54,616 nucleotides of DNA from a virus (IMGVR_UViG_3300042448_002124:1-54616); one strand, 5' to 3'. Positions 3,300 through 49,467 are shown, counted from the stretch's first letter. Notes: generated from the letters alone by a model not told the origin. A program made the numbers and translations.

Positions 3300-3300
3300 A

Positions 3301-16700: not shown

Positions 16701-19700
16701 AAAAGTGATGTTTATATTAACATAAGCGGGGCAACAGGAAACGAAGATGATATCTGGGGAGTGAACATTTTCTATGATTGTGATGAAAATTACAATGACG
16801 GAATAAGTCCAATAGAAATTCAAAGATCTATTTCTGATCCATGTGTTTTTATAATTAAAGATGTGTACGAAGATGGGGATATCAACAATAACCCGATCGA
16901 CTTAATCATAACCGATGCCGCAAACTGCGAACAAAAGTTAAAAATTGAGGGTTTAGATATAAAAATTGAACATGACCCATACCCATTGTCAACATCTGGT
17001 CGTAGCCACACACAATTATTTGAAATTTCGTCAATAGATGGTTCCGGAAATGTTGTTTCCGTAATATCTGGTGTAACATATTGTGATAACTACACAGGAT
17101 TTACTATTACGCCAAAAATACAATATCGACCAACCTTTGATTACGGCATAAAGAAAGGAACTTTTGTGCTAAAAGCCACTGGAAATACTATCAACGTTAA
17201 TACATGGTTAGATGTTCAAGCCGCAATATCGTCTGGAGCAATTAATGAAACATTAATTGAAAATGTAAATAATGGTGATCATTTGTTGTCTGCGGAATTT
17301 TTAGATTGTCCATTCCCTACAACAGATTTTAGAAATGTCCCAATAAGTGGTTACTCTTTTGGGTTTGATTATAAATTAATTGAAATTACAAATATTGATT
17401 GCTTAGGTTCAATTAAAAAACATTTAATCAATAATGAGTTTGAAGTTTTACCGACAACAGAATTAAGAGTTTACAGAGATGGTAAATTTATTAGTGAATT
17501 CCCAGAGAATTTAATTATTAAACCAGAACCACCAATGGAACCTTGTTGCGATGTTGATGAGTCATATTTTAAACAACATGGTGATTATCTTTTAAATCAA
17601 ATAGGATTTCCAATCGAAGTTGAAACAGTTGATTTAGATTACTGTTCTAGAAGTATATTTTACCATATAAATTTTGATGGATCTGGCGACGTTGTTTTAT
17701 TTAACGGAAATACTAATTCTCAATTATTATTATCGTTTACGCAAAATAAATTTAAAAACCTAGATTTTAATTTAGAACAATATCATTCATTTGGACCATG
17801 TATAAATGATTATAATCCTAGAATACATTCTGGTGGTGTATGTAACAACACGCCAGTTGTCACTTGCGGTACACACCATAGCAATGCCACACCTACACCG
17901 ACGCCAACTATCACACCAACAATAACGCCAACCTTTACTATTACACCTACCCAATCTATTACACCAACCGAAACATTAACGCCAACGTTAACTGTTACTC
18001 AATCTATAACACCAACACTTACTATTACACCTACCCAATCTATAACACCAACACTTACTATTACACCTACCCAATCTATAACACCGACACTTACTATTAC
18101 TCCAACACAATCTATTACACCAACCGAAACATTAACACCAACGCTAACATTAACACCTACATTTACAATAACCCCAACGCAATCTATAACACCGACACTT
18201 ACTATTACTCCAACACAATCTATTACACCAACCGAAACATTAACACCAACGCTAACATTAACACCTACATTTACAATAACCCCAACGCAATCTATAACAC
18301 CGACACTTACTATTACTCCAACACAATCTATAACACCAACACTTACTGTTACCCCAACTGAAACACTAACACCGACACTTACTATAACACCAACACTTAC
18401 TATTACACCTACTCAATCTATAACCCCAACATACACTATAACTCCAACATATAGTATAACACCAACTATTACCCCAACATTAACCATAACGCCAACATAT
18501 ACAATTACACCGACGTATAGCATTACACCAACTATTACTCCAACATTAACCATAACACCAACTGAAACACTAACACCTACATTTACTCCAACAGAAACAT
18601 TAACACCAACGTTAACGGTTACACAATCTATTACACCGACTCAAACTATTACACCTACATATACAATCACACCAACAATCACACCGACAGAAACGTTAAC
18701 CCCAACATACACTATAACTCCAACATACACTATAACTCCAACATATAGTATAACCCCAACCATTACACCGACTGAAACATTAACACCAACATATACAATC
18801 ACATCAACACCAACATCAACCGAGACACCAACACTTACACCAACATTAACACCAACGTTAACTATTACTCAATCTATTACACCAACCGAAACATTAACAC
18901 CAACATACACAATTACACCAACAATCACACCAACCGAAACATTAACGCCAACATTTACAATTACACCAACATATACTATAACTCCAACATATAGTATCAC
19001 TCCGACAGTTACACCTACTGTCACTATTACTCAATCTATTACACCAACTCAAACGATAACTCCGACATTAACTTTAACACCTACATATACAATCACACCA
19101 ACAATCACACCGACATTAACTATTACACCAACATATACAATTACTCCAACATATAGCATTACCCCAACTATAACACCAACACAAACTATAACTCCGACAT
19201 TAACTATAACACCTACATATACAATCACACCAACGTTAACAATTACTCAATCTATTACACCAACATATACAATCACACCAACCATTACACCAACTCAAAC
19301 TATAACACCAACTCAAACTATAACACCAACTCAAACTATTACACCTACTGTTACTATCACCCAATCAATCACACCAACTCAAACTATTACACCTACTGTT
19401 ACTGAAACAATAACATTAACACCAACTCAAACTATAACACCAACACAAACAATTACACCAACATTTACGCTAACACCCACATATACATTAACACCAACAA
19501 TAACACCAACTTGTGATTGTCCTGCCGGATTTACATTAACATCTGATGGTAATAGTTGTTATAGGGTTTTAACCACTAGCCCAACAACTATTGCTAATTT
19601 ATATGTTGGCGATGGTGGTGATAACGCATCGTACGGACAATACGGTGTTAAAATTTACAATGTAAACGATTATAACGCTTCAGGTTTCACTATAAGCGGT

Positions 19701-20927
19701 AATTTGGCGTTCTCCGGATTCACAAACGCATTTGATGGTTCTAGCACAACATCTGTTGAAGGATATTGGGCTAGTGTTATGAATAATAATAATGTTTGGG
19801 TTTCCGGTAATGTAAACTGGCCTGGACCATCATCGTTTGCCTATCCAAATTATGTTAGTTTCTGTGCAACATTTACATTGGCAACAACTAAAACATATTA
19901 CATTGGTGTTGCGGGAGACAACGATATTACAATTAAATTAAATTCTGTTACATTAGTTAATCAACCAGACAACCAACCAGTAGATAACTTCAGATTCTAT
20001 CACATATATCCTGTGGTTTTACAAGCAGGACCAAATATTATTGAAATAGAAAACTGGAATAGAAGTAGCGTTGGTTCATTTGTTGCTGAAATTTATGATA
20101 ACACATTATCACAACTTACTTCTGCAACAAATAATACAATGGTAACCAAAGTGTTCACTACTGGTGATTACTTACCTGGAGGACCACTCGCCGGAGAACA
20201 ATTCTGTAGCAACTACAGTTGTCCAGCAACCTATAGTTTAGATTTATCAAACCCAAGCAGCCCAGTTTGTAAAAAAATTGAATACGTTAATTGCGGAACA
20301 ACACCAACCCCAACACCAACCGTTACTATAACCCAATCTATTACACCAACACAAACTATAACTCCGACATTAACAATAACCCCAACTCAAACAATAACCC
20401 CAACACCAACCGTTACTATAACCCAATCAATTACGCCAACTCAAACTATTACTCCAACTATTACGTTAACACCAACTCAAACGATAACTCCGACATTAAC
20501 TATAACACCTACATATACAGTTACACCTACAGTCACACCTTTCTATCAAAACTGTGGATATGGTTGTGAAGCGTATGAAACAGATCAATCTTGTACACCT
20601 TGTGATCCTGCAGGAACTCAAGTAAATATTACCGGTTGTGCTGAGTTTACAGGAAGCAATCAAGTAACAATGACATTATACAGTTCTGTGAACGTTTCCA
20701 CAGATATAACAGTAAATTTTGTTATTGATGGTGATTTCGGTACACATATTGAAAGCAGTTTAGTGATAAGTAGCGGTACCGCATATGTTTCTGGTAACGT
20801 TGGTTCATATGTAAGTTTGGAAATAATTAATAATGCGTATATCGACACAATAACCCCAACGTCTTATGGTTCCCAATCATATGTTCCTGGTACAGTAGCA
20901 TATGGTTCAGGATGCACCCCACCATAA
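13725..20927 (+). CDS. Giant baseplate protein (gp7/P2 gpI-like core) with a ~540-aa Thr-Pro-Thr stalk and a lectin-like domain
   Basis: [14 protein letters not shown]...[19 protein letters not shown] resembles the gpI/gp7 wedge motif; TPT tracts; PA14-like IGVAGDND domain. Confidence 0.62.
17889..19511 (+). repeat. Coding tandem repeat TPT(x)(T/S)(I/L/V), mostly 18-nt units, ~541 codons
   Basis: Directly visible A/C-rich, G-poor tract. Contains a higher-order 108-nt duplication starting at 18075, 18183 and (partial) 18291. Confidence 0.97.
20298..20540 (+). repeat. Second Thr-Pro-Thr coding repeat in the 2400-aa protein
   Basis: [21 protein letters not shown]... about 81 codons. Confidence 0.95.
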
Positions 20928-20976
20928 TTTTTTTACTATTTACATATAAAAAAATAGATTCGATATTTATGTTAAT

Positions 20977-21795
20977 ATGGCTATATCGCTTAGATTAACT
21001 AACATAACTTGTCCGAATCCGTTCACTTTAGGGTACTCAACGTCACCCTATGGAACGTTTACGAATGTAAGTTATTCTGGATCGACACCAACGGTTATTA
21101 TTGCTCATTCTTTTGAATTTGATACACAGTATTTCATAAAATTAACAGATTCCGTTACGAATAGATATATTATTGAAAACATATATATACACGATAGTAA
21201 AGCGTTTCCTTGTTATGACACGATCGACTTTGATCTGTCAGCACAATGTGTAACAACACCAACACCGACAATCACACCAACACTTACTGTTACCCCAACT
21301 GAAACACTAACACCGACACTTACCGTAACACCAACCCCAACAGTAACTAGTACGGCTGTAGTTCAACCAACACCTACGCCAACACCTACACCAACCGAAA
21401 CTAGTGCGCCACCAACACCTACACCAACAAGTACACCATTAATGTTGGCTATTAATGTTACTAATTCAATTAATGGAACTACTGGAACAATTAATGAGGT
21501 ATTAATACCTGGTTTATTGGATTACCTAACGCCAATTACTCCTGAAGGTCTAATGCTTGATATATTAACGGGTACAACGGAAGCCCAAACAATATCGATA
21601 GCAATTATTAACGCAGAAATATCTAGAACATATACCGTTAGCGTTACGGCTAACGGGCCTACCGGAAGTGGCATAAATAGATCCGCAACAGCGTCACAAT
21701 TTGCTACTTTGGTTTCTTCATTTACCCTAACCCCAACAATAAATTTAACGGGTGTAATAACGTTAAATGTTACATTAGATGTAAATTACCCATAA
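20977..21795 (+). CDS. Putative virion appendage protein with a TPT linker between two beta-rich domains
   Basis: 272 aa, TPT tract at ~21251-21438, TATTTAT 6 nt upstream of the ATG. Confidence 0.6.
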   Translation: MAISLRLTNITCPNPFTLGYSTSPYGTFTNVSYSGSTPTVIIAHSFEFDTQYFIKLTDSVTNRYIIENIYIHDSKAFPCYDTIDFDLSAQCVTTPTPTITPTLTVTPTETLTPTLTVTPTPTVTSTAVVQPTPTPTPTPTETSAPPTPTPTSTPLMLAINVTNSINGTTGTINEVLIPGLLDYLTPITPEGLMLDILTGTTEAQTISIAIINAEISRTYTVSVTANGPTGSGINRSATASQFATLVSSFTLTPTINLTGVITLNVTLDVNYP

Positions 21796-21798
21796 TAA

Positions 21799-23985
21799 AT
21801 GGCATTATATAATATAACCATATCAAACATAACAGGAAGTACAACACCTTGTGCTACGTATAAAATTTATACTGGGACAACAATGTATTTTTCAGATTCT
21901 GTGTTTTTTTCTAATGCCACAATTAACACTACAACTGGATATACCTTTGCTATGCAATACAATGGACCATCTGACGTGTTATTTGTGTTTGTTGAACATT
22001 GTGATGGACACTCAACACCAATAGATGATTTATCGTGCTGCGGCGATCCTGAAAAAAAACAAGGAGGGTATCAGGTAAGAATGGTTAAATTAAATTGTGG
22101 ATCAACACCTGCATTAACAACAACACCTACTCCAACAGTTACACCAACCCAAACTATTACACCTACACCAACTATTACACCTACACCAACTATTACGCCA
22201 ACCCCAACGGTTACAATAACCGCGACACCTATTATACCTCCACCAAGTGGGGAGACACCAACACCTACACCAACATTAACACCTACTAACGTTATTCCTT
22301 GTATTGATTGTCCGACCGGTTATACATGGACACCAATAGGTTACGGTGTATGTACATCTACCGATGTTACATCATCGACAGCACCAATAAACCCATATAT
22401 TGCATATGAGAGAAAATATTTTGAATATAGTACTAGTGGTACAACAGTTTACCAATCTGGTTGGAATATAAACGGAACTGGAACCGAACAAATACATTTA
22501 AACACTTTTAATGTTTGGAGAAACACAACGGGTTTTAATCTTGCAAATCCAGGTAATGGTCCTTTAAATAGAACAGGTATTTGGGCAAATATTGATACTG
22601 CAGATCCTATTGATTATCCATTGGATACTTGGATAGGGTTTAATTTCTGTCTAACAGGAATAATAGGTGGTGAATATTATATTGGTATTGGTGCAGATAA
22701 TGAATTTAGATTAGAAATTGATGGACTAACAATATTAGACACATATGCAAATTCAGGTTTAAATGAACTCGCAAAATTTAGAGAATGGCATGTTTACCCA
22801 ATTACATTAAATCCTGGTGATCATATTATTGGGTTATATGGGTATAATTTAATTGGTAACGAAACTAATCCTGCAGGATTTGGTTGTGAGATATATCAAA
22901 ATAATTTAATAGAATTACAATCGGCAGATGAATTAAATGACCTTAACATTATATTCACATCGGCAGATTTTATAGGTGAAGTAATACCAGTAATTAAAGA
23001 TGTTAATGGAAATTATTTATCATCCGGATACACATGTCCTAGTGGGTACGAGTACGCTCAGTGTGATAATAGTTGTTGGAAAGTATTGTATTGTCCTGAA
23101 TTAACACCAACACCAACATTAACACTAACACCAACTCAAACTATAACACCAACATTAACAATAACACCAACATTAACACTAACACCAACTCAAACTATAA
23201 CACCAACATTAACAATAACACCAACATTAACACTAACCCCAACTCAAACTATAACACCAACTCAAACTATAACCCCAACTCAAACTATAACACCAACATT
23301 AACACTAACCCCAACTCAAACTGAAACCATAACAACTATTTGTTATTTTTATACTAACTCATCGGGTGTTAATTGGAATGGTGATTGGGTGGATTGTGAT
23401 GGTACAAATCATTTTGCTGAAAACGTTCCTGATGGAAATTCAATTTGTGCAAGACCAACACCATTTACATTAACTGGAATAGATTTAGTACAAAGTAGTG
23501 TTTGTTCAGGACCAACTCCAACACAAACTATAACCCCAACTCAAACTATAACCCCAACATTAACACTAACCCCAACTCAAACTATAACTCCGACCCAAAC
23601 TATCACACCAACTCAAACAATAACACCTACTGGTACTCCTACCCCAACACCAATAACTGAAGCAAATATTGATATAACCAATGGTTCATTGGATATTGAA
23701 ATAACTGGAGTTTATGTTAACGGAGTGGAGTCAACAGTTGTTGGTGGTACAATGCCAAGTACAACTGGAAACGGAGTAAATCTAGCAACAACACAAATAG
23801 GTACCTATGATGTGATTGTTTATTATGGTTGTTCAACGGCTGGTCAGCGCATAACATTTACAGATAGTGATTCAAATGTTACTTGTATTAATACTTTAAC
23901 TGGTTCAAATAGTTACAATTTTACTGCTTCAGTTGTAGCAACAGATCAAAATGTTTTAATTGAAGCAACAGATGGAACCTGTTAA
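21799..23985 (+). CDS. Putative virion adhesin: Cys-rich modules, three TPT linkers and a PA14-like domain
   Basis: 728 aa; the YYIGIGADNEFRLEIDG domain is paralogous to the one in the 2400-aa protein. Confidence 0.6.
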   Translation: MALYNITISNITGSTTPCATYKIYTGTTMYFSDSVFFSNATINTTTGYTFAMQYNGPSDVLFVFVEHCDGHSTPIDDLSCCGDPEKKQGGYQVRMVKLNCGSTPALTTTPTPTVTPTQTITPTPTITPTPTITPTPTVTITATPIIPPPSGETPTPTPTLTPTNVIPCIDCPTGYTWTPIGYGVCTSTDVTSSTAPINPYIAYERKYFEYSTSGTTVYQSGWNINGTGTEQIHLNTFNVWRNTTGFNLANPGNGPLNRTGIWANIDTADPIDYPLDTWIGFNFCLTGIIGGEYYIGIGADNEFRLEIDGLTILDTYANSGLNELAKFREWHVYPITLNPGDHIIGLYGYNLIGNETNPAGFGCEIYQNNLIELQSADELNDLNIIFTSADFIGEVIPVIKDVNGNYLSSGYTCPSGYEYAQCDNSCWKVLYCPELTPTPTLTLTPTQTITPTLTITPTLTLTPTQTITPTLTITPTLTLTPTQTITPTQTITPTQTITPTLTLTPTQTETITTICYFYTNSSGVNWNGDWVDCDGTNHFAENVPDGNSICARPTPFTLTGIDLVQSSVCSGPTPTQTITPTQTITPTLTLTPTQTITPTQTITPTQTITPTGTPTPTPITEANIDITNGSLDIEITGVYVNGVESTVVGGTMPSTTGNGVNLATTQIGTYDVIVYYGCSTAGQRITFTDSDSNVTCINTLTGSNSYNFTASVVATDQNVLIEATDGTC
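23110..23260 (+). repeat. Near-perfect 54-nt tandem repeat inside a TPT tract
   Basis: ACACCAACATTAACACTAACACCAACTCAAACTATAACACCAACATTAACAATA at 23110 and 23164, with a partial third copy at 23218. Confidence 0.9.
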
Positions 23986-24017
23986 ATGATGAAAAACAAA
24001 AATTTATATTTTATAAA

Positions 24018-25988
24018 ATGAGTAAAGGAGTAATAATAGATTTTAAAATAGATACCGGACATACCCAATCAAATTTTCCTCAGTATGTTTATACCGGATT
24101 AACCGCCGATTCAGCAACTGGATTAACAGTTTGCAATGGCGTGACTGGTAATACCTGCAACCTTGAAGGGTTAGACGATGGATTACCATTTATTTATGTT
24201 AAAATAACTTGTAATGGTTGCGATGACCAAATATTTAAAGTTGAATACCCTACACCAACACCTACCTTAACACCTACATTTACATTAACACCTACATTTA
24301 CATTAACACCAACCCAAACTATTACACCAACCGCATCATTAACACCAACGCTTACACCAACATTAACACCAACATTAACACCAACATTAACTATTACTCA
24401 ATCTATTACGCCAACATTAACCTTATCGCCAACACCAACATCGGAAGCGCCAATAGAAGTAACGATCACAGTGAAATATCATGGAGCATCGGAACCACTT
24501 GGAAATTTAGCATGTAATTCTGGTACCGATATACAAGTTGTAATGGATAGCGCAGATTTTTGTACCGCAACAACATATACTAGTAGTTATTTTACATCAA
24601 TTGGTACTGGAACTTTTTGGTTATCATATAATGGAAAATATAGACAAATATACCATAGCAGCGGAAACAGTGCTACTCAATCAGGTACATGTCAAGATTG
24701 TGTAGGTATTGAACCAACATACTATTATTACGCGATGGGTGATTGTGCGGACATGAGGTATAGTTATACAGCATCTACTATTACAGGATTCAGCCCACCA
24801 ATCCAAATACCAGGTTGTGATACTTTAGCAAACATTGCAACATTATCAATGCAAAACCCTGCAGTTACGTCATACTATGTATCAAATCCATTAGATGCCT
24901 GCGGATTTGGAGGCAGTTATGTTAGTACAATAATAGCGAGAAGTTCTACTGAAATTACTGAAGAAACTGTTTTTAGTATTAGTGGTCAGTGTTTAGCAGT
25001 TGTAAGTGTTGAAACAGAGTATGTTACAGGGTGGACTGTCAATTTAGACGAACAGACACCTGTTGGAATCGGTTGGGACGCATGTAGTAGTTGTTCACCA
25101 CCATTTACCGGATTTACAATAACGGGTTACAGTGGTGTTACATGTGATACAGAAGAAAATGTAATAGCATATTCATTATTAGGTGGATTTACTTTAGGTA
25201 ATGCTTACGGAATACAAATGTATAGCGGTGGAACAGCAACAGGTGAACGTATATGCATGACATTAAACGCAAATTTAGGTCCACAGTTTGTTATAGAAGA
25301 TCCTGAAACTGAAGGAATAACTGGATATCAAATTAGCGATGCCGGACCAACAACATTCCCACCAACATTTAGTGGTTATACTAATTGTAATGCATGTGAT
25401 GGTGTAGTTCAAAAGTATATGATAACAGGTGAAAGATGTGACACTACAGGCAGTGTTACAATATGGTCGGACACAGCACCAACAGTGGTAAGTGGAAATA
25501 CAATTTCAGTAAATATTCTTGGAACTATTGTATGTTTCCTTGTAACACAAGCAGACCAATTTACTTCCGCAGTTTACAATGATTTAGGTTTCACAATAAT
25601 TGATACAGGATGTGATTGTAATGGAAATAACGGAGGAGGAGATGTTAATGTTAATAATATTGTTTTTGCACCATCCTCATTTACAAATACTGGAGGTGAA
25701 TGCCAAAGCCCTGCGAATCAATATTACACGGAATCTACCTCAACTCAAATGGAGTTGACATTTAGAGATTCAAGCAATAATCCAGTAACACCTAACGGTG
25801 CTGTTGAGTATAGGGTGAACGGAGGAAGTTGGCAATCATTAACTGTAACAGGAAGTACAGTAACATTTTCGGTAACGTTAATATTTGGTGATAATCTTAT
25901 TTGTACTGGTGGATCAACTTATGCGGATACGTTAGATATTAAGGTTGGAACAATAACAGTAGACACATATATAGCAGGATCAACGTAA
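24018..25988 (+). CDS. Putative virion appendage protein, Cys-rich, with a TPT linker
   Basis: 656 aa; TPT tract ~24248-24441; repeated small Cys modules ending in CxxC/CxC. Confidence 0.58.
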   Translation: MSKGVIIDFKIDTGHTQSNFPQYVYTGLTADSATGLTVCNGVTGNTCNLEGLDDGLPFIYVKITCNGCDDQIFKVEYPTPTPTLTPTFTLTPTFTLTPTQTITPTASLTPTLTPTLTPTLTPTLTITQSITPTLTLSPTPTSEAPIEVTITVKYHGASEPLGNLACNSGTDIQVVMDSADFCTATTYTSSYFTSIGTGTFWLSYNGKYRQIYHSSGNSATQSGTCQDCVGIEPTYYYYAMGDCADMRYSYTASTITGFSPPIQIPGCDTLANIATLSMQNPAVTSYYVSNPLDACGFGGSYVSTIIARSSTEITEETVFSISGQCLAVVSVETEYVTGWTVNLDEQTPVGIGWDACSSCSPPFTGFTITGYSGVTCDTEENVIAYSLLGGFTLGNAYGIQMYSGGTATGERICMTLNANLGPQFVIEDPETEGITGYQISDAGPTTFPPTFSGYTNCNACDGVVQKYMITGERCDTTGSVTIWSDTAPTVVSGNTISVNILGTIVCFLVTQADQFTSAVYNDLGFTIIDTGCDCNGNNGGGDVNVNNIVFAPSSFTNTGGECQSPANQYYTESTSTQMELTFRDSSNNPVTPNGAVEYRVNGGSWQSLTVTGSTVTFSVTLIFGDNLICTGGSTYADTLDIKVGTITVDTYIAGST

Positions 25989-26017
25989 TAAAAATTAAAA
26001 AATAATATTTATAATAT

Positions 26018-28129
26018 ATGAGTTTCTTAAACAGCAATAATTCAGAATTTTTAACAGCAAGATTAACCCAAAAAGGTAGAAAGTCAATTGCTGAAGGTAA
26101 CTTTGTTATAAGTTATTTTCAAGTAGGGGATTCTGAATTTGATTATAATTTTACAGGTTTCACAGGACAAGGAACAAAACCCCACCAAAAAGTTTTGGCT
26201 CCATTTGATAAAGATGCACAAGTTAAATATCCATATAAATTAACACCTACAGAATCATTAACCTATGGCAACCCTGTTAGACAAAACACTCTTGAAACAA
26301 TTAAGAATGTAATGGGTCCAGCGGGATTTGTTTCTGATTATCATGAATATGATTCAGAAGCGTGTACCGGTACAACAATAAATTGTGAAGTACAAGAAAT
26401 TAATTTATCGAGAGTCGACGGAACAAATGTTTTAACTGTTTTAACTGGCGAAACATATAATGACTGTGAATATATTACTGTTCTTTTTAATAATAGAACC
26501 GTTAACGATATACCAACATTAACAGAAAACTCAACTAGTTTAGTTTATAAAATTATTTCAATAGATGGCAACGAAATAACTTTAGATAGAGTTATGCCAA
26601 ATTTCACAACACTTTCTGGTTATGCACAAGTAATATGCCATAACTGCGGTGTTGAATATGGTGTGGAATCGATAGTTGCTCCAGTTTGTTCACCAAAACA
26701 AGTAGATCCAGCAGATGCCCATGATCCGTGGAGAATGGAATTTGTTTGGACAGAAAAACCAGCAGGTTTAGACGATTTAAATGAAACACTAACAGGATAT
26801 ACAGGATCACAATACGCATCAACAAAAGAATATCTTGGATATACATCAAGTTCTGGACAAAGATTTACAAATTTCACAGGCGGAACAATAAGTTATCCAA
26901 CAAGTTATTTAAACTCATTTGGTGAAGAAATTGAATTAACTCCAGAGGAAACAAAAGTAATAGCAATTATTCATTTTTCCGAATTAGGTGATTCCATTAA
27001 CGATCCTGAGAGGTTTTTTAAATATGATGATTATATAGCAGGTGAAGATATTGAGGATATTGAAAGTTTTGAAGTTTACATTCCATTCTTAATGTATCAT
27101 AGGAATACTGGAACAACAATAGGTGCCGTGTTCTATATGGGTGACACAAATTATTATGTCACATCATCTAAAAACGATAAACCTAACACAAATAACGTGG
27201 TGTTTAGATATTTGTTAGATGAACAAGGTAATAAAGTTGGTAAAGTATTCACAGGTAAGAAAATCGTAGTGTTTGATGATCAAGAAATTATTGCTGCATT
27301 AGAATATAAAGCAAATAGAAGATATACATTACCAGCACCAAGAGTTAGTTCAGTGCCAGTTGACTTACCATGTGCTATAGGGGACGACCCAATTATTATA
27401 ACAGGTGAAACGGCATATATAACATATGTTCTAGAATATACTGGTGATACAGCATTAAGTGGTCTTCATTGTAACTACTACAGTAAAGTTACAGGATCAA
27501 CAAGTTGTAACATTTCATTAAAGTTTAAAACTGATGATTTTACATTCATGACCAATAACGCTAGTTTATCTGGCAGCACAATAGGGTTTAGAGCAAATAA
27601 ATTTAGTGCGTTAGTGCAAATAGTGTCCGGAACAACTACCCAACCGGAAACAGATGGTTGGGTTAAAATTGACATTACAGATCAAATACCAAACCACACT
27701 GTTGGGAATTTGATTAATCCCACAAATTTGTGTGATAAACAATTTGTAATAAGTAAAACAATGTTTGATGACGACGGTACATTGTATTCTATCGGTACCA
27801 ACACATCAACAACAGATTTTTTAATTGGCAATCAACCAGATTTAACAGTTAGCGGATCAACATTACCACAATTCGGTGATAGTCAACCATTTGCAGGTAG
27901 TATTAAGTTAACAAGAGCAACAGATCTTGAGGTAATGACTTTTATGGTTAACTTACCAAGCACTCAATTTACCGAAACTCAAAATCCGACGTTTATCACC
28001 GGGTCACCAAAAAGAATAACTGAAGTTGCTTTATTGGATGAAAACAAATATGTTTTAGCCATGTCAAAAGCGGCTAAACCGGTTCTTAGATCAGGTACTC
28101 AAGTTTTTGCAGTTAAAATTGATTTTTAA
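26018..28129 (+). CDS. Putative tail/baseplate protein (tail-collar/fibre-attachment-like termini)
   Basis: N-terminal ARLTQKGRK..YFQVGDSE and C-terminal ITEVALLDEN..LAMSK..KPV...FAVKIDF; last gene of the structural block. Confidence 0.55.
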   Translation: MSFLNSNNSEFLTARLTQKGRKSIAEGNFVISYFQVGDSEFDYNFTGFTGQGTKPHQKVLAPFDKDAQVKYPYKLTPTESLTYGNPVRQNTLETIKNVMGPAGFVSDYHEYDSEACTGTTINCEVQEINLSRVDGTNVLTVLTGETYNDCEYITVLFNNRTVNDIPTLTENSTSLVYKIISIDGNEITLDRVMPNFTTLSGYAQVICHNCGVEYGVESIVAPVCSPKQVDPADAHDPWRMEFVWTEKPAGLDDLNETLTGYTGSQYASTKEYLGYTSSSGQRFTNFTGGTISYPTSYLNSFGEEIELTPEETKVIAIIHFSELGDSINDPERFFKYDDYIAGEDIEDIESFEVYIPFLMYHRNTGTTIGAVFYMGDTNYYVTSSKNDKPNTNNVVFRYLLDEQGNKVGKVFTGKKIVVFDDQEIIAALEYKANRRYTLPAPRVSSVPVDLPCAIGDDPIIITGETAYITYVLEYTGDTALSGLHCNYYSKVTGSTSCNISLKFKTDDFTFMTNNASLSGSTIGFRANKFSALVQIVSGTTTQPETDGWVKIDITDQIPNHTVGNLINPTNLCDKQFVISKTMFDDDGTLYSIGTNTSTTDFLIGNQPDLTVSGSTLPQFGDSQPFAGSIKLTRATDLEVMTFMVNLPSTQFTETQNPTFITGSPKRITEVALLDENKYVLAMSKAAKPVLRSGTQVFAVKIDF

Positions 28130-28167
28130 CACTTTACAAATATATTTTTTAATTTTATTCTTGTTTT

Positions 28168-28767
28168 ATGGAGACAAAATTAAAAAACAAATCTAAGATT
28201 TTAGGTCTAGACATTTCTACTAAAACTATTGGTTGGGCATTATTTGACCTAACTGGTAAGAAATTATTAGAATTAACACATTTCTCACCTAAAATCAAAC
28301 CACAGCCAGAAGATAAGTTAGAAGAACTTATTAAAAAAGCAGATGCTTTTAAAGCACAATTAGAAAAATATAGAGATTTAGGTATTTTAAAGGTTGTAAT
28401 CGAAGAGCCACTGTTAAATTCAAACAACATTTATACTGTTGGTACATTATTACGATACAATACAATGATCTGTAAGGCGGTTTACGATGTTTTAGGCCTT
28501 GTCCCAACATTCATATCAACATATAATGCTAGGAAATTCGCTTTTCCTGATTTAGTCAACCCAAACGACAAAGGTAAAAATGTTTTATTCGGAGGTTATC
28601 CCAAAGATATTGACAAAAAACACGTTATCTGGGAACACGTAAACGCTGTCTGCCCTGAGGTAAAATGGTTATACGGTAAAACAGGTCAACTAAAAAAGGA
28701 ATGTTATGACATGTCAGATGCAGCAACGGCTGTCATTGGATATATCAACATGTTGAAAGCAGAATAA
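28168..28767 (+). CDS. RuvC-like Holliday junction resolvase
   Basis: RNase H-fold acidic motifs ILGLDISTKTIGWA, VVIEEP and DMSDAATAV. Confidence 0.8.
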   Translation: METKLKNKSKILGLDISTKTIGWALFDLTGKKLLELTHFSPKIKPQPEDKLEELIKKADAFKAQLEKYRDLGILKVVIEEPLLNSNNIYTVGTLLRYNTMICKAVYDVLGLVPTFISTYNARKFAFPDLVNPNDKGKNVLFGGYPKDIDKKHVIWEHVNAVCPEVKWLYGKTGQLKKECYDMSDAATAVIGYINMLKAE

Positions 28768-28814
28768 ATTCGGCAATACGATTTTTTTTAACGCTTTTTT
28801 TGTGTTATATTTAT

Positions 28815-28888
28815 ACTTAAGACGGAGCATGTAGTAATACATGTTTAGTTGGTGTTCCCCCGGGGTGGTGTCCGGGGGATTTTTTTTT
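28815..28888 (+). ncRNA. Candidate small RNA (~70 nt) with two hairpins
   Basis: TATTTAT at 28808-14; hairpin 28821-50 capped by a GTAA (GNRA) tetraloop; second hairpin TCCCCCGG/CCGGGGGA followed by T9; no ORF of its own. Confidence 0.6.
28856..28888 (+). terminator. Strong intrinsic terminator
   Basis: Perfect 8-bp GC-rich stem 28856-63/28872-79 followed by T 28880-88. Confidence 0.85.
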
Positions 28889-28915
28889 AACATATTTTTT
28901 TTGTATATTAATCTC

Positions 28916-29854
28916 ATGCCTCAAACCGAGTTAGATTATTTACCTATCATTGAAATCCTAGAAGAAATCCTAGGAGAGCCACACATGCACAATGACTATA
29001 AGTGTCAAATATCTTTTGATTGTCCAGTATGTTCATATGATTTAAAGGGTTTAGACGAAGGTGACGGTAAGGGTAATCTAGAAGTAAACTATCGTTTTGG
29101 GGTGTATAAATGTTGGGCATGCGGTGAAACTAATAACACCCATGGAAACATTTATAAACTTATTAAAAAATATGGAACCCAAAGGCATTTAAAGAAATAC
29201 GAATTATTAAGACCAGATGAAGTAGAAGAATTTAGGAAAGTAACCAAGGTTGCTAGATTACCTAAGGAGTTTATTTCATTAAACAATGTAAGCGCAGGGC
29301 TAAAACTAACACACTATTATAGACAAGCGGCAAATTATCTAAAAAGTAGAAATGTTACCGACGAAATGATAGTAAGATATAATATCGGTTTTGCATACGA
29401 TGGTCTTTTTGCGAATAGAATTATAATACCATCTTATGATTCAGACATGAAATTAAATTACTTCATTGCTAGATCCTATTTATCCAAAACAAAATTAAAA
29501 TATAAAAACCCAGACGTTAGAAAAGAAATTATCATATTCAACGAACATTTACTTAACTGGGAAGAGACAATTTATATTGTTGAAGGGGCATTTGACAGCA
29601 TATTTGTACCAAACTCAATACCATTATTAGGTAAAGTTATGAGTGATTATGTTTTTACCAAAGTATATGAAAATGCAAAGAAAGTTGTTGTACTATTAGA
29701 TGGAGATGCGTGGAATGACGCACAAAGAATTTATGACAAATTAAACGGAGGAAACCTTTTTGGTAAAGTATGGATTGTTAGATTACCTGACGATAGCGAC
29801 ATTGCCGATTTACAAGGAAATTTAGAAAATTATCAACCATTTCAATTATATTAA
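28916..29854 (+). CDS. dnaG: DNA primase (Zn finger plus TOPRIM)
   Basis: CPVC...CWAC Zn finger, RIIIP..YFIARS, IVEGAFD and LLDGD. Start placed at ATG 28916 because the upstream extension crosses a terminator. Confidence 0.88.
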   Translation: MPQTELDYLPIIEILEEILGEPHMHNDYKCQISFDCPVCSYDLKGLDEGDGKGNLEVNYRFGVYKCWACGETNNTHGNIYKLIKKYGTQRHLKKYELLRPDEVEEFRKVTKVARLPKEFISLNNVSAGLKLTHYYRQAANYLKSRNVTDEMIVRYNIGFAYDGLFANRIIIPSYDSDMKLNYFIARSYLSKTKLKYKNPDVRKEIIIFNEHLLNWEETIYIVEGAFDSIFVPNSIPLLGKVMSDYVFTKVYENAKKVVVLLDGDAWNDAQRIYDKLNGGNLFGKVWIVRLPDDSDIADLQGNLENYQPFQLY

Positions 29855-29856
29855 AA

Positions 29857-30711
29857 ATGAATTTACAAGAAATCTCGTTAGAAATCAGAGACCTATTAGA
29901 AAAAAGAAGGCAAGAATTAGCATTAACTTTCGTTGAAGAGAAACACATCTATTTCATGAAGGATTTAGAAGGAAACATTAGATCGGATTTTCCGTCTGTT
30001 TCAAAAGTTCTCAAGAAGTTCCATAAACAATTCGATGCTCCAGCAAAAGCATTAGAAATGTCTAAGGGTGATAGATCGAAACAACAACAATTATTATCAG
30101 AATGGAGAGCAGCCGGCGATTACTCAACAAACATGGGCAGTAGAGTTCATTTTATTTTAGAGAACGAAACGATTGCAAAATATGGTAACTACAAAGAAGT
30201 TAGGCAACCAATTTTTAATTGTGATGATTCACAAATAACCAAAGGTGATAATATGATTACCGCAGGTAGAGATTTTCTAAACTTAATGGAAGAAAGGGGT
30301 GCTATTCTTTTGGATACTGAAATTATTTCAGGAGATAACGAATTAGGGTATACAGGTCAACCAGATAAAGTGTGGTTAATGATGAATAAAGAAAAAACCG
30401 ATTTTGGTTTTGTTTTGACCGATTGGAAAACTAACCAACCAAAAAATTTTGAAGTTCAGTCGTATACAGGTAAAATGTACCCACCATTCCAAAATTATCA
30501 TGACAATGCTTTAGGTCATTATTATTTGCAACTTCCATTATATGCAAGATTGTTATTAAAAATGTTACAAGGAACAAAATATGAAGGAATAAAATCACTA
30601 GGCGGTGTCGTGGTTCTTCTTAAAGATGATGCAACATTTGTTGAGTATAAAGTACCTGCAGATATTAACTCAATGATTATGAGAATTGACATCACAAAAT
30701 ACACGAAATAA
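29857..30711 (+). CDS. PD-(D/E)XK (RecB-like) exonuclease
   Basis: PSVS, GSRVH, E...GQPDKV...DWKT...QLPLY motifs. Confidence 0.8.
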   Translation: MNLQEISLEIRDLLEKRRQELALTFVEEKHIYFMKDLEGNIRSDFPSVSKVLKKFHKQFDAPAKALEMSKGDRSKQQQLLSEWRAAGDYSTNMGSRVHFILENETIAKYGNYKEVRQPIFNCDDSQITKGDNMITAGRDFLNLMEERGAILLDTEIISGDNELGYTGQPDKVWLMMNKEKTDFGFVLTDWKTNQPKNFEVQSYTGKMYPPFQNYHDNALGHYYLQLPLYARLLLKMLQGTKYEGIKSLGGVVVLLKDDATFVEYKVPADINSMIMRIDITKYTK

Positions 30712-31529
30712 TGGTAAAGAAAATAATACACATAGCCGACTTACATATTCGTACAATTCAAATGCATGATTTGTATAAAGAACAGTTTCAAAAACTGTTG
30801 GACGAATTAAGTGTAAAATTCTTAGAATGGGCAGATGAAAATATATCGCATAACGAAATTAGAATTGTTGTTGCGGGTGATATCGCACATCAAAAAATTA
30901 ATATCTCAAATGAACAATTATTATTAACGAGTTGGTTTTTAAAAGAGTTAACTCGTTTTGGTAAGGTTGTAATCATACCGGGTAATCACGATTTCTTGGA
31001 GAACAATGCACAACGTATGGATAGTATAACACCAGTCGTTCAATTATTAAACAACCAACACATTTCCTATTATAAAGATAGTGGTGATTATATGGATGAA
31101 AATATCCAATGGGTTGTCTATTCGCTTTATCAACACAATGCTCGTCCTGAGTTTACAAAAGATGAAGACAGATTAACTGTAGGTTTATTCCACGGACCAA
31201 TCCAAGGAATGTCAACTGACTTAGGTTTTGAATTTGAAGATGCTTATGATCGTTTAAACTTCGTTGATTTGGATTTATTGCTATGTGGCGATATTCACAA
31301 GAGACAGCAATTTAAATTACCTAATGGTGGTAAAGCAGTGATGGTTGGTTCACTAATACAACAGAATTTTGGTGAGACCATTAAGTACCATGGGTATGGT
31401 GTTTACGATGTTAATACTGACGAGTATGCGTTCCATGATCTTAAAAACGAACAACCATTCTTACATTTTAAAATAAACGACATTAAAGACATAGAAGATG
31501 AAAAAGAAGAACTCGTTAATCTTGGATGA
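30711..31529 (+). CDS. sbcD: SbcD/Mre11 (gp47-like) metallophosphoesterase nuclease
   Basis: ADLH, AGDIAH, PGNHD, FHG and GDIHKRQ motifs, then GSLIQQNFGE. Confidence 0.88.
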   Translation: MVKKIIHIADLHIRTIQMHDLYKEQFQKLLDELSVKFLEWADENISHNEIRIVVAGDIAHQKINISNEQLLLTSWFLKELTRFGKVVIIPGNHDFLENNAQRMDSITPVVQLLNNQHISYYKDSGDYMDENIQWVVYSLYQHNARPEFTKDEDRLTVGLFHGPIQGMSTDLGFEFEDAYDRLNFVDLDLLLCGDIHKRQQFKLPNGGKAVMVGSLIQQNFGETIKYHGYGVYDVNTDEYAFHDLKNEQPFLHFKINDIKDIEDEKEELVNLG

Positions 31530-31974
31530 TGAGTTCATACAATATTGCGAACTAAACAATATTAAAGACGCAGACAAGTTAGCAAAAAAAATATTTAACC
31601 AAGGATTTTCAATTGAAAAGTATGGGGAAATTCCTAATGGAATTAAACCAAAAGAAACAGTAATCGAGAAAGAGATCATTAAAGAAGTGATTAAAGAAAT
31701 TGAGGTTATTAAAGAAGTTCCGGTCGAAAAAATAGTAGAAAAAGTAATTGAAGTTGAAGTAATCAAAGAGGTGCCCATAAAAGGTGATACAACAGTAGTA
31801 ACTAAAGAAGTCATAAAAGAAGTTAAGGTAACTGATAATGCTGAAATAGAAAGGTTATTATTAGAAAATAAAAAACTAAGTGATGAATTGAATAAAATCA
31901 CTAGTGCAATGGAAAAATTCAATAAAGCGAAATATCACAAAAGCAGCAACCTTACCGATTTATATGATGAATAA
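31498..31974 (+). CDS. Hypothetical protein with (K/E)V(I/P)-type repeats and a C-terminal coiled coil
   Basis: KEIIKEVIKEIEVIKEVPVEKIVEKVIEVEVIKEVP tract. Confidence 0.7.
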   Translation: MKKKNSLILDDEFIQYCELNNIKDADKLAKKIFNQGFSIEKYGEIPNGIKPKETVIEKEIIKEVIKEIEVIKEVPVEKIVEKVIEVEVIKEVPIKGDTTVVTKEVIKEVKVTDNAEIERLLLENKKLSDELNKITSAMEKFNKAKYHKSSNLTDLYDE

Positions 31975-32021
31975 TTTTTTTTTACAATAAAAAAAACGTA
32001 TATTAATTAAATTTTAAATCT

Positions 32022-35671: not shown

Positions 35672-36367
35672 ATGACACCAAAGGAATACAATGGCTTCGG
35701 CCTTTTCGCAAAAAGCATGGGTATTAGTTCTTCTAAGATTGATTATTTTAGTAAACATTTAGAATCATACCTAGGCCTTAAAAGTAGTTTAACGCCCTAT
35801 GTTCTTGAAGAAAGACAAATGAATGTAACACAGATTGATGTGTTCAGTAGATTAATGATGGAACGCATTATATGGGTAGCCGGAGAGGTAAATGATAATA
35901 TGTCAGTTATCACACAGGCGCAACTCATGTTTTTAGATAGTTTGGACAACACAGATATTACAATGCACATCGATAGTCCTGGCGGAAGCGTTAAATCTGG
36001 GTTATCAATGGTAGATGTTATGGATTACATCAGTTCAGACATTAGAACAATCAATACTGGTATGGCAGCATCTATGGGTTCTATTTTACTAGGCGCTGGC
36101 GCAAAAGGAAAAAGAGGATCACTTAGATTTTCTAGAACAATGTTACACCAAAGTTCAGGTGGATTCCAAGGAAACATCCAAGATGCTAAAATTGATATGA
36201 TTGAGTGGGAGAAAATCAATAATACTTTATTTGAATTATTGGGCGGCTATTGTGGTAAAGATGCTGAAGTCGTTAAACAGGACGCATCAAGAGATTTATG
36301 GTTATCATCTGAAGATGCGTTGGCTTACGGAATCATTGATGAAATTGTAACCAAAAAGAAGAAATAA
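35672..36367 (+). CDS. clpP: ATP-dependent Clp protease proteolytic subunit
   Basis: DVFSRLMMERII, IDSPGGSV, catalytic AASMGS, MLHQ and RD motifs. Confidence 0.95.
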   Translation: MTPKEYNGFGLFAKSMGISSSKIDYFSKHLESYLGLKSSLTPYVLEERQMNVTQIDVFSRLMMERIIWVAGEVNDNMSVITQAQLMFLDSLDNTDITMHIDSPGGSVKSGLSMVDVMDYISSDIRTINTGMAASMGSILLGAGAKGKRGSLRFSRTMLHQSSGGFQGNIQDAKIDMIEWEKINNTLFELLGGYCGKDAEVVKQDASRDLWLSSEDALAYGIIDEIVTKKKK

Positions 36368-36395
36368 GTTTTAGGGTTTGTAAATAAATAAAATT

Positions 36396-36424
36396 GGGAG
36401 GTGTCTTTACACTTCCCTTTTTTT
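36396..36424 (+). terminator. Intrinsic terminator after clpP
   Basis: GGGAGGTGT-cttt-ACACTTCCC plus T7. Confidence 0.85.
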
Positions 36425-36447
36425 ATTTCTTCCTATATATTTATTCC

Positions 36448-36521
36448 TAGACCTTGTGGTTGAATCGGAAGTGTCCTAGAGACATTTGAGTTGGAATTGA
36501 TACCAACGAATTCGGGTTCAA
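36448..36521 (+). ncRNA. Structured 5' leader (three-way junction) plus the 5' arm of a long-range stem
   Basis: P1 36460-70/36511-21, P2 36471-75/36481-85, P3 36490-94/36503-07 flanked by tandem GA; 36448-62 pairs with 37366-80. Confidence 0.6.
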
Positions 36522-36541
36522 ATACAAAAAAATATAAGGAA

Positions 36542-37357: not shown

Positions 37358-37382
37358 TAATAAACTAATCACAAGGTCTACG

Positions 37383-37407
37383 CGGGGTACTTTTTGTACC
37401 CCGTTTG
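37383..37407 (+). terminator. Intrinsic terminator after the Zn-ribbon gene
   Basis: CGGGGTAC-ttttt-GTACCCCG then TTTG, immediately followed by the next TATTTAT. Confidence 0.75.
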
Positions 37408-37428
37408 TATTTATATTAAAATACGCAT

Positions 37429-37773
37429 ATGAAGATCAATAAAACGAATATACTGCTTGTTATTGTCATTATTTTGGCTGGATATAGTATTTTCCAGGGA
37501 GATAAGATAAGAACCGATGTAGCGGGTTATAATAACAAAATTGACTCAATTCAGAATGAGATCGATTCGGTAGAAATGTTAAACACTAAATTAAGTGAAC
37601 AAATTGGCGTTATCGACCAAGAAATCGATAAAGTAGACGGAAATATAAATAATGTTACAAAAAACATAACAATCATCAAAAACCAAACACATGAAAAAAT
37701 TGATTCTGTTAATAACTATAATTTTTCTGACCTCGAAAAGTTTTTCTCAGACCGTTACAAAGACCAATATTGA
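37429..37773 (+). CDS. Membrane-anchored coiled-coil protein (i-spanin-like candidate)
   Basis: N-terminal TM (ILLVIVIILAGYSIF) then a heptad coiled coil; overlaps the next gene by 83 nt. Confidence 0.55.
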   Translation: MKINKTNILLVIVIILAGYSIFQGDKIRTDVAGYNNKIDSIQNEIDSVEMLNTKLSEQIGVIDQEIDKVDGNINNVTKNITIIKNQTHEKIDSVNNYNFSDLEKFFSDRYKDQY

Positions 37774-38108: not shown

Positions 38109-38771
38109 ATGAAGAAATATCTAGATATTAGAAATGTTATCATCGTTATTCTTCTATTGTTGGCTCTAGTTGAGTTCCTAAACCCTAGAGGGTTCATGCC
38201 TGGTAGAACCAAATTAATGACACAAATTGATTCAATACCTTACCCAGTACACGACACAATTCCATTTGAAACGGAGATTGAAGTACCCGTTGAGATCGAG
38301 GTTGAAGTACCAGTGGATAGACCTGTGGAAGTGAGAGTCGAAGTTGAAAAACCAGTGGATACTGCAGCAATTTTAAAAATGTTTGCCGAAAACAAACAAA
38401 CTAAAAAAGATGTTTTAGAATTACCTAACAACATAGGTACGGTGACGGTTTTTGATACAATATCTAATAACAGGATATTGGGTAGATCATTTACCAGTAA
38501 GGTAAAGAAGCAAATCGTAAAAGACACCATTTATACCCCAGTACCTCCAAAACGTTTATATTACATTGGATTTGATGCTAAATTTGATAAACCTAATATG
38601 ATAAACTTATTAGGCGTTAGTATGATGATTAAAACAAAGGACGAAAAAATCTATAAATTCGGTGTTGGTGTGCAAAACATTGTAGGTCCAGACGGAGTAA
38701 ACGGGTCTTTAGTACCAAATATTGGTGGAGGAGTTTACTGGAAAATTAATCTTCGAAAGGGTAGTAAGTAA
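38109..38771 (+). CDS. Envelope protein with N-terminal TM and C-terminal amphipathic beta strands (spanin-like candidate)
   Basis: VIIVILLLLALV anchor, EVPV repeats, terminal NIGGGVYWKINL strand. Confidence 0.55.
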   Translation: MKKYLDIRNVIIVILLLLALVEFLNPRGFMPGRTKLMTQIDSIPYPVHDTIPFETEIEVPVEIEVEVPVDRPVEVRVEVEKPVDTAAILKMFAENKQTKKDVLELPNNIGTVTVFDTISNNRILGRSFTSKVKKQIVKDTIYTPVPPKRLYYIGFDAKFDKPNMINLLGVSMMIKTKDEKIYKFGVGVQNIVGPDGVNGSLVPNIGGGVYWKINLRKGSK

Positions 38772-39225
38772 TTTTTTCTTGAAAAAACGCCCTATCCAAA
38801 GAAATTTCTATCTTATATAATCTAGTTTGTATATCATTATATGAGTTAGAGGTATCTGATTCAATAAATTTTTCATCCCAATTTAATTTGATGGTATGGT
38901 AAAAAGTATCATAATCATCTTTTTCTTCATTAAAAACGTCAAATTCAACTTCAATTTCTTTAGGTCCCTTAATGTTTGTAACACTAATACTTTCAATACC
39001 CCACCTTCTTTCATATATGTACAAATCATAAGTAACTTCAATTTCTTTTGGATGTCTAAAATCATCTATGTCCCTACCCTCAAAATCGTTAAAACGATCA
39101 AAATCTAATTCAACGCTAGCCCTATATCCCGTAAAACGATCATTATCCTCCTTTAAAAGGGAACCTTTAACGGTTTTAACAATATTTGTTAATTGTTTAA
39201 TGTCTAATTTTCTAATTTCTTTCAT
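38746..39225 (-). CDS. Hypothetical acidic protein
   Basis: 159-aa ORF preceded on the - strand by TATTTATA (39253-60); N-terminal LDIKQLTNIVK...LLKED. Confidence 0.7.
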   Translation of the reverse strand: MKEIRKLDIKQLTNIVKTVKGSLLKEDNDRFTGYRASVELDFDRFNDFEGRDIDDFRHPKEIEVTYDLYIYERRWGIESISVTNIKGPKEIEVEFDVFNEEKDDYDTFYHTIKLNWDEKFIESDTSNSYNDIQTRLYKIEISLDRAFFQEKITYYPFED

Positions 39226-47509: not shown

Positions 47510-47726
47510 TTTATTTAATCAATTAGCGATTATCGCTGACTTAGTTGAGAAATGTAATTTGCATACTGAAAATAAAGCAATTATTTTAGACGTTGAAAAA
47601 AACGAATTTGAAAGAATTTACAACATGGTCGCAAGAAAAAGTAGAATGTCCGGTGGATTACCAAAAAATAGTTTTAATCTAAAAATAGGTGAAGTTAATA
47701 TCGTTTTTAATACGAGTAATGTCTAA
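47493..47726 (+). CDS. Hypothetical protein
   Basis: ATG 47493; converges on the - strand gene. Confidence 0.6.
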   Translation: MEKKGDLFNQLAIIADLVEKCNLHTENKAIILDVEKNEFERIYNMVARKSRMSGGLPKNSFNLKIGEVNIVFNTSNV

Positions 47727-49431: not shown

Positions 49432-49467
49432 TTTCTTATTTTCATTTTTTTTACGTATATTAGACCC

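Follow-up and report, generated by a model that had tools for sequence, protein, structure and literature searches.

A candidate small RNA gene with an invariant terminator loop upstream of the primase gene of uncultured phages

The virus record IMGVR_UViG_3300042448_002124 (hereafter the window, meaning the whole 54,616-base stretch that was analysed) has a CheckV completeness of 16% and a G+C content of 32.9%, and its genes lie almost entirely on the + strand. A 148-nucleotide (nt) intergenic gap separates a RuvC-like resolvase gene from a DnaG-type primase gene, both on the + strand. An original prediction made from the DNA alone placed a small RNA gene in this gap, apparently independent of the primase gene and displaying the sequence GGUGU twice. 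The elements on which it drew (a promoter-like box, a first hairpin, a GGTGT stretch, a terminator, a run of nine T residues and a GTATATT motif at 28903) all lie where it placed them. The gap and its flanking genes are organised as follows:

28168..28767, + strand: RuvC-like resolvase gene (phrog_159, E 4.7e-06), the upstream neighbour of the element in the window
28795..28811, + strand: putative promoter region of the small RNA, with T7 at 28795-28801, TG at 28803-28804 (extended -10 type) and TATATT at 28806-28811
28805-28814, + strand: promoter-like motif TTATATTTAT
28819..28821, + strand: predicted transcription start, 7-9 nt past the -10-like box, where sequence conservation begins
28821..28850, + strand: hairpin 1, with a lower stem of GAC/GUU and G.U-rich GAG/UUU, a conserved G-purine mismatch, a variable upper stem and the loop GUAA at 28834-28837
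28851..28855, + strand: single-stranded linker GGUGU, with an unpaired probability of about 0.8-0.9 in the predicted transcript
28856..28879, + strand: intrinsic terminator hairpin, with a stem of 8-9 base pairs (28856-28863 with 28872-28879), seven of them G-C
28864-28871, + strand: terminator loop of 8 nt (GGTGGTGT in DNA, GGUGGUGU in RNA), with the invariant UGGUGU at 28866-28871
28880..28888, + strand: U9 tract (T9 in DNA), within which the RNA is predicted to end
28895..28909, + strand: putative primase promoter box, with T8 at 28895-28902, a G and TATATT at 28904-28909 (GTATATT at 28903-28909), ending 6 nt before the ATG at 28916
28916..29854, + strand: DnaG-type primase gene (PF08275, E 8.6e-07; phrog_47, E 5.1e-40), the constant downstream neighbour of the element

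The signals between the upstream box and the U9 tract would yield an RNA of about 62-70 nt. The + strand of 28808-28888 has a predicted folding energy of -32.4 kcal/mol, compared with -18.0 +/- 3.4 kcal/mol in 200 shuffled sequences (z -4.21), none of which folded as well. On the - strand hairpin 1 is reduced to six pairs. The predicted transcript itself (28819-28886) folds to -29.9 kcal/mol, leaving the linker and the terminator loop unpaired. By its sequence the second hairpin is an intrinsic terminator, a G+C-rich stem-loop followed by a U tract on the transcribed strand. It ranks first among 12 terminator-like sites between 20000 and 39999, a total that is not in excess of the 10.0 +/- 3.5 sites found in shuffled sequence, and the loops of the other terminators in the window are unrelated to it. 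Searches against Rfam 15 returned no match in the whole window at gathering thresholds, and no family, including any from Bacteroides, reached threshold in the window or in eight related loci. The sole match at E<=1 in those eight loci was NsiR1, with 28.7 bits against a threshold of 39. The element is unannotated, as had been supposed.

To compare the element among relatives, loci were retrieved from IMG/VR by protein anchors, giving 29 primase loci and the best 80 of 262 resolvase relatives. A covariance model built from eight gapless sequences was searched against 100 sources (700,384 bases, both strands). It gave 77 matches, one per locus and all on the gene strand, which collapse to 46 distinct sequences. 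Across these, 97.8% of cells form standard pairs, compared with 67.1 +/- 1.0% after shuffling, and 38-56% when pairing partners were moved by 1-3 columns. Changes on both sides occur at 20 of the 21 pairs, and none of 500 shuffles reached any of the five measures used. Hairpin 1 has compensatory changes at 11 of its 12 pairs (98.3% of cells paired) and the terminator stem at all nine. The alignments were fitted to the covariance model, which favours structure, but the compensatory changes are directly visible in the raw, unfitted sequences of relatives. A second set, retrieved by a DNA pattern, contained at least 120 stretches, and the model confirmed 51 of the 80 listed. In that set 97.9% of cells are paired among 32 distinct sequences; it is biased because the pattern fixed three motifs. 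The structure is therefore real and far beyond chance, and both of the hairpins that had been predicted from a single sequence are conserved with covariation.

Several features point to the gene strand as the functional one and to RNA as the functional molecule. At three positions of hairpin 1, most sequences have G.U (43, 42 and 37 of the 46 distinct ones). These pairs would turn into A-C mismatches on the opposite strand, which identifies the gene strand as the functional one, in agreement with the earlier remark that the G-U pairs of the hairpin are valid only on the + strand. The length of the element varies from 64 to 74 nt in single-nucleotide steps and there is no conserved start codon. 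Such single steps exclude a coding constraint. The lone - strand open reading frame (ORF) that crosses the element (28714-28917, 67 amino acids) is disrupted in relatives by the same length variation. All neighbouring genes are on the + strand, and the element overlaps no opposite-strand gene of the kind that would make it a cis-antisense RNA. Compensatory substitutions that respect one strand only are the pattern expected of a conserved structured RNA, which is how we classify the element.

The sequence of the element is constrained in addition to its fold. Both sides of the hairpin 1 lower stem are conserved, as GRCGG(G/A)A and UUU(G/A)GUUGG, including the G.U pairs and the G-purine mismatch. 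The upper part of the hairpin is free to vary. Its tip is mostly GAAA, GUAA or GCAA, so the GNRA loop of the original prediction is common; it is not universal, since some relatives have A/U loops of 6-9 nt and one has an insertion. In the latter (L119, 3640-3767) approximately 55 nt replace the tetraloop, while the lower stem, the linker, the terminator loop (AGUGGUGU) and both promoter-like boxes are kept. A T-run of at least five follows the terminator stem in all aligned relatives.

A further constraint falls on the terminator loop. UGGUGU is present in all 46 distinct sequences, including three divergent types with differing 5' halves, and stays constant while every pair of the stem that carries it varies. 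The covariance model prefers this loop, and we therefore also checked it without the model. In 78 of the 80 resolvase-anchored loci, the 160 nt upstream of the primase gene contain a hairpin with a TGGTGT loop followed by at least six T residues. The two misses, one with an interrupted T-run and one a coordinate artefact, still have model matches. Among the 29 primase-anchored loci the same hairpin was found in 11, which are exactly those with a primase identity of at least 62%, and was absent from the other 18, whose primases are 46-51% identical. The proposal that GGUGU is displayed twice holds for this loop and not for the linker, whose family consensus is GG(U) followed by 0-4 variable bases. 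The family keeps GUUGG(U), the GUU of which pairs with the 5' GAC, and the linker GGUGU is therefore a local feature of the window and a few relatives. An invariant loop in a varying stem points directly to where the function of the RNA would lie.

Conservation extends to the promoter-like signals. Among 51 distinct upstream flanks, 48 carry a TATA[ACT]T box whose end lies 6-11 nt ahead of the G of GRCGG. Of these 48, 25 have a TT[TCG]AC[ATC] hexamer 16-18 nt further upstream and ten, including the window, have an extended -10 TGn. The three exceptions are the divergent types, in which the box lies further upstream. Variable A/T residues separate the box from the conserved 5' end, and from +2 onwards G, C, G and G are near-invariant. 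A -10-like box at a fixed distance from a conserved 5' end suggests that the unit behaves as its own gene, as was first proposed. The composite motif T5+ N1-6 TATATT occurs six times on the + strand of the window and not at all on the - strand. Five of the six copies are in true intergenic DNA; four of these precede ORFs, and only the copy at the element precedes none. In most distinct relatives a T-tract with a TATATT-type box also precedes the primase ATG, at 0-11 nt, so the separate primase motif seen in the window is widespread. Such boxes, if they are promoters, would produce leaderless or near-leaderless mRNAs. Several window genes have a T-tract and TATATT box at just 3-7 nt from the ATG, for example at 28904-28918 and 49456-49470.

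These flanks bear on another account of the element, namely that it is a mere terminator and stabilising 3' hairpin of the upstream late operon (structural genes and resolvase) and that the box is a chance A/T motif. From 13725 to 28767 all genes point the same way and only tiny gaps separate them, forming a 15-kilobase (kb) block; the element provides the first strong terminator after it, and TATATT is frequent in the genome. A chance motif would not be expected to keep its distance to the 5' end in 48 of 51 flanks while the intervening bases vary. Termination does not need an invariant loop, the lower stem of hairpin 1 is conserved in sequence, and the element goes with the primase gene and not with the gene upstream. 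We therefore regard this account as quite improbable, although the terminator must stop the upstream block whatever its other role.

The association with the primase gene is close. The primase start lies 26-52 nt past the element in 85 of 86 related phage loci, the remaining locus being an alignment artefact. In 26 of the 86 loci, 144-886 nt, often with an extra ORF, are inserted between the resolvase gene and the element. The element therefore belongs to the upstream region of the primase gene and not to the 3' untranslated region of the resolvase mRNA, the outcome that would have undermined the idea of a separate unit. The synteny and covariation check that had been suggested for related phages thus came out on the side of the prediction. 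The element is single copy in three genomes of 93-100% completeness (311-336 kb). A candidate second copy in one 336-kb record (L115 of record G010, 36169-36239, - strand; 20.1 bits) was rejected; it is a hairpin at the end of a gene that resembles hairpin 1 weakly, has GAAA as its loop and is followed by GGUUGG and an ordinary terminator, and it does not have the invariant loop.

A fixed address of this kind could also reflect a role in cis. The element may be a leader or antitermination cassette for the replication module, in which a factor bound at the base of hairpin 1, at the loop or at both permits read-through into the genes downstream. Transcription from the upstream box would normally stop at the terminator and leave a by-product RNA, for which the short lambda PR'-tR' transcript is a parallel. 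In favour of this role are the constant distance to the primase start whatever lies upstream, and the downstream genes themselves, a replication and recombination block of primase, phrog_298 exonuclease, SbcD-like and SbcC-like genes. The lower stem also keeps G.U where A-U or G-C would pair as well, which fits a protein site. However, most relatives have their own T-tract and TATATT box between the terminator and the primase ATG, and read-through into the primase gene is therefore not needed. The terminator is very strong, with 8-9 G+C-rich pairs and U8-9. When the 3' arm of the terminator was blocked, its 5' arm had nothing upstream to pair with in 42 of the 46 distinct sequences. These thus offer no alternative antiterminator helix, and a classical attenuator is unlikely; factor-dependent antitermination may still operate. 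Outgroup phages also run the resolvase gene straight into the primase gene without the cassette. Weighing these points, we consider a purely cis-acting cassette unlikely.

The outgroup arrangement is seen in four of the 18 loci without the element (L011-L013 and L027), in which the resolvase gene runs almost straight into the primase gene. The cassette accordingly has the look of an insertion that divided a single transcription unit. In the other 14 loci without the element, another gene or region precedes the primase gene.

The position next to a primase gene could alternatively reflect an element that works as DNA, either a replication origin activated by transcription or a loading site for primase, in which hairpins of the displaced + strand present TGGTGT to the primase. 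Phage origins that combine a promoter with A/T-rich DNA, and the hairpin priming signals of plasmids, are known analogues. The element adjoins the primase gene in the same 85 of 86 loci, two tandem promoter-like boxes accompany a very A/T-rich stretch (28880-28915), and the loop is invariant though the stems vary. As DNA, however, the three conserved G.U positions would be G.T mismatches, and a G+C-rich stem with U8-9 after it is what marks an RNA terminator. Neither GC skew nor gene orientation changes at 28.8 kb. An origin or loading site seems very unlikely to us on this evidence.

We judge it slightly better than an even chance that the element is a discrete, independently transcribed small RNA gene of freshwater jumbo phages, with the invariant terminator loop as its working surface. 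A host-type promoter, represented in the window by an extended -10 and in many relatives by a -35-like hexamer with TATATT, would start transcription at approximately 28819-28821, and the transcript would be released within the U9 tract at 28880-28888. The RNA would fold into a 5' hairpin with a conserved G.U-rich base and a variable tip, and a terminator hairpin with a variable stem and a 7-8 nt loop containing UGGUGU. The invariant loop would be the contact surface, aided by the G/U linker and by the G.U base if it can be opened. It may act in trans, either as a short pairing or kissing seed for an RNA that contains ACACCA or as a protein site. As for the conserved G.U-rich base, it may conceal a second seed within a helix that can be opened, or may itself be bound by a protein. 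In cis, the terminator would end the long upstream late operon and shield the primase promoter from read-through.

Several observations weigh against this interpretation. Accessibility is predicted for only 5-8 nt, a short length for a seed. Sequence conservation on either side of the lower stem points to recognition by a protein no less than to pairing. The constant attachment to the upstream region of the primase gene fits a cis role equally well. The start site, the 3' end and even transcription itself are predicted from motifs, and TATATT-like boxes are common in a genome of 33% G+C (the window has 69 on its + strand and 63 on its - strand). Some of the boxes are just 3-6 nt from an ATG, and their promoter nature is itself putative. 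Finally, both of the ACACCA-bearing candidates examined as targets have evidence against them.

The complement of the loop is ACACCA and that of the linker core is ACCAAC. One conceivable partner is the codon unit ACA-CCA-AC(A) of the (I/L)TPT repeats in the giant late proteins of the phage, which would offer many pairing sites per mRNA. ACACCA occurs 102 times in the window (rank 11 among hexamers) and ACCAAC 119 times (rank 4), nearly all in ORFs between 13725 and 25988, and all six invariant loop bases would form Watson-Crick pairs. Coding-strand ACACCAAC arrays are present in all four element-bearing relatives tested, with 44, 37, 74 and 98 copies compared with 0-20 for the reversed control. 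However, arrays are also present in three of five relatives without the element (104, 77 and 21+19 copies), the flanking codon does not follow the loop type, and the loop does not covary with its array context. A-ending Thr-Pro codons are expected in any A/T-rich genome, and the G/U-rich loop therefore matches the Thr-Pro repeats by composition. We give this partner little credence. The repeats are numerous in their own right. Repeats of the (I/L)TPT type, written almost uniformly as ACA-CCA-AC(A/T), occur by the hundreds at 17800-20500 within a 2400-amino-acid ORF (13725-20927), and also at 21000-25000 and 42069-42368, and they produce a GC skew of -0.60 at 18-20 kb.

Three other approaches to a target were abandoned. 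In Escherichia coli 16S ribosomal RNA, the 5' GACGGG and the loop UGGUGU exactly complement adjacent hexamers at 1402-1413, each of which is unique in 16S and absent from 23S. We rejected this decoding site as a target in the predicted host: AAGCCA replaces ACACCA there in six of six 16S genes of the family Flavobacteriaceae, and the divergent element types do not have GACGGG. The primase mRNA was also rejected, with ACACC following the ATG in some relatives only. A duplex scan of the window with the whole RNA unfolds the RNA and was uninformative.

A further idea draws on the phage group to which the element appears to belong. The bS21 phages of Chen et al. (2022) have genomes of 293-331 kb with 31.0-33.7% G+C and come from freshwater lakes; gene affiliations and a single CRISPR spacer of Flavobacterium point to Bacteroidetes as their predicted hosts (PMC9723584). 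A match to PF01165 (bS21) above the Pfam cut-off was found in all five related records of 245-336 kb (G004, G006, G010, G011 and G012, the records behind L007, L015, L097, L086 and L029 respectively), four with the element and one without. The size of these relatives, their G+C content of about 33% and their lake origin agree with that description. The window sequence is present in metagenome runs from lake water, with no RNA run listed for 26000-32000, and none of 45 window genes has GGAG or GAGG at -20 to -4, in line with the predicted Bacteroidetes hosts. The element-bearing clade thus fits the bS21-encoding freshwater jumbo phages, of about 310-336 kb, as judged from relatives of the window, itself a 16% fragment.

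The RNA might be a ribosome-directed partner of the phage's own bS21, occupying or exposing the 3' tail of 16S ribosomal RNA in Bacteroidetes ribosomes as phage bS21 replaces the host protein. Six 16S genes were examined from the family of a metagenome-assembled genome (MAG) with a related contig, and in all six the tail ends in ...AACACCUCCUUUCU. Seven of the eight positions of the common loop GGUGGUGU can pair with ACACCUCC of this tail. GGUGU would pair with ACACC, including the first two bases of the hidden anti-Shine-Dalgarno sequence, and the linker GGUGU of the window offers a second possible site. The tail adenine that stacks on bS21 (PMC9723584) falls within the same ACACC stretch. 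Against this reading, the U that invariably opens UGGUGU would stand opposite another U, divergent loops (UUGGUGUAA) pair less well, and the host is merely predicted. If true, the RNA would be a component of ribosome takeover; we consider this a long shot.

The element was not found in five more distant relatives, one of them a 100%-complete genome of 317 kb, with either the first model or a broader model built from all 77 matches (best E 0.8). In 50,697 phage records, blastn with the region and tblastn with the resolvase matched nothing. Primase matches in those records are all below 60% identity, and the nearest named phage, Flavobacterium phage immuto (33%), has the same primase-exonuclease order. 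Upstream of its primase gene is a plain terminator with no model match. The window resolvase matched nothing in cellular genomes, and an alignment of 15 resolvases found two contigs there. One is the related 248-kb contig L119 in a MAG assigned to Flavobacteriaceae, which carries the element; its binning is weak evidence of a host. The other (L120) is a 171-kb contig in a Methanobacterium MAG with a resolvase homologue that is 50% identical (3001-3621); its match to the model is unconvincing (11.0 bits, E 0.15), and it probably comes from a phage and was binned wrongly.

Most of what is known about small RNAs encoded by phages comes from a few model phages of Proteobacteria and Firmicutes, and to our knowledge almost nothing is known of them in Bacteroidetes phages or uncultured jumbo phages. 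The OOP RNA of lambda, of about 70-80 nt, is transcribed from a promoter of its own, ends at an intrinsic terminator and is antisense to an opposite-strand gene. The present RNA would likewise be short, with its own promoter-like box and terminator, but has no gene opposite. The lambda PR'-tR' region with Q, and the nut and put RNAs, place a promoter, a short structured transcript and a terminator before a gene block, put consisting of two adjacent stem-loops. In contrast, the phage element has a second promoter-like box past its terminator, its second hairpin is a canonical terminator, it has no alternative pairing, and no Q- or N-like gene was identified for it. Small RNAs of the GcvB type use a long, single-stranded, Hfq-dependent G/U-rich seed to target C/A-rich mRNA elements. 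The accessible conserved parts of the phage RNA are likewise G/U-rich, with C/A-rich complements (ACACCA and ACCAAC), whereas the phage RNA exposes at most 5-8 nt and Bacteroidetes lack Hfq (PMC13370968).

Closer to the predicted host, the trans-acting GibS and FopS family of Bacteroides comprises short transcripts, from promoter to intrinsic terminator, in which a conserved short segment is the proposed seed (PMC11697453). The phage RNA would resemble these in its length, its boundaries and its conserved short segment, and in host phylum as predicted. They differ in that the Bacteroides seed is a single-stranded 5' stretch, whereas the 5' end of the phage RNA is locked in a hairpin and its invariant segment is a terminator loop; the phage RNA is also single copy and phage-encoded. 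For the E. coli RNAs SdsR, RseX and ArrS, PMC11979758 states that their own terminator loops drive regulation "likely without base-pairing". A terminator loop as functional determinant would be shared with the phage RNA, where its invariance suggests the role. Those RNAs work together with Hfq and RNase E in an enterobacterial host, and their sequences are unrelated to that of the phage RNA. Our literature searches on small RNAs of jumbo phages or Flavobacterium phages, and on the loop word together with phage, found no description of the element among the papers listed. In the main text of PMC9723584 the words intergenic, non-coding, small RNA and promoter are absent; its supplementary tables, which might list contigs, were outside the search.

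On present evidence the element represents a new family of RNA whose kind is already known, from a phage group that is published and uncultured. It is a family defined purely from sequence, with unusually clean covariation, a single copy per genome and a fixed address at the boundary of the late and replication modules. It would add a non-coding component to an ecologically abundant phage group already suspected of remodelling host ribosomes, and would support the recent idea of terminator loops as regulatory surfaces. Once a relative is cultured, an RNA of about 65 nt with six critical bases would be a small and concrete test object.

A few chromosomal sequences resemble parts of the phage RNA. 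The broad model (R2), run on 150 genomes of the family Flavobacteriaceae, had matches at E<=0.1 per genome in eight, which is about chance level; one of these is the MAG phage contig. A pattern search in 401 genomes matched 71, and matches to the reversed-pattern control were of the same order (untotalled). On one chromosome from the family (L249, 1501-1553, - strand; 42.2 bits with R2), a short hairpin and terminator with the loop GGUAGUGU, identical to the phage loop at seven of eight bases, lie between a sodium:solute symporter-like gene and a LacI-type regulator gene. Three further loci (L251, L252 and L253, 1501-1567, - strand) have an unannotated, conserved RNA-like element with ...AACGGUAGUUAAUAGAAC...UUUUUGGUUGGU and an intrinsic terminator, and a conserved stretch further upstream. 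This chromosomal element, which ends in UUUUGGUUGGU followed by the terminator, occurs in about ten of the 401 genomes and has no Rfam match in L251-L253. Its likeness to the 5' half of the phage RNA (27-30 bits) is statistically insecure.

Elsewhere in the window, two long spacers (36368-36541 and 37358-37690) each begin with a good terminator (36396-36417 and 37382-37404, respectively) followed by a TATATTTAT-like box. The first of these would yield a 5' leader of about 100 nt, with an unremarkable fold (z -1.8) and no Rfam match. The only sizeable - strand ORFs in the 54-kb window are at 38746-39225 and 47707-48354. Among the other genes are a class II (B12-dependent) ribonucleotide reductase-like gene (792-2702), a Baseplate_J-like gene (3301-5133) and a 500-amino-acid ORF (40566-42068) with a short TacA1 antitoxin-like stretch (E 8.4e-07).

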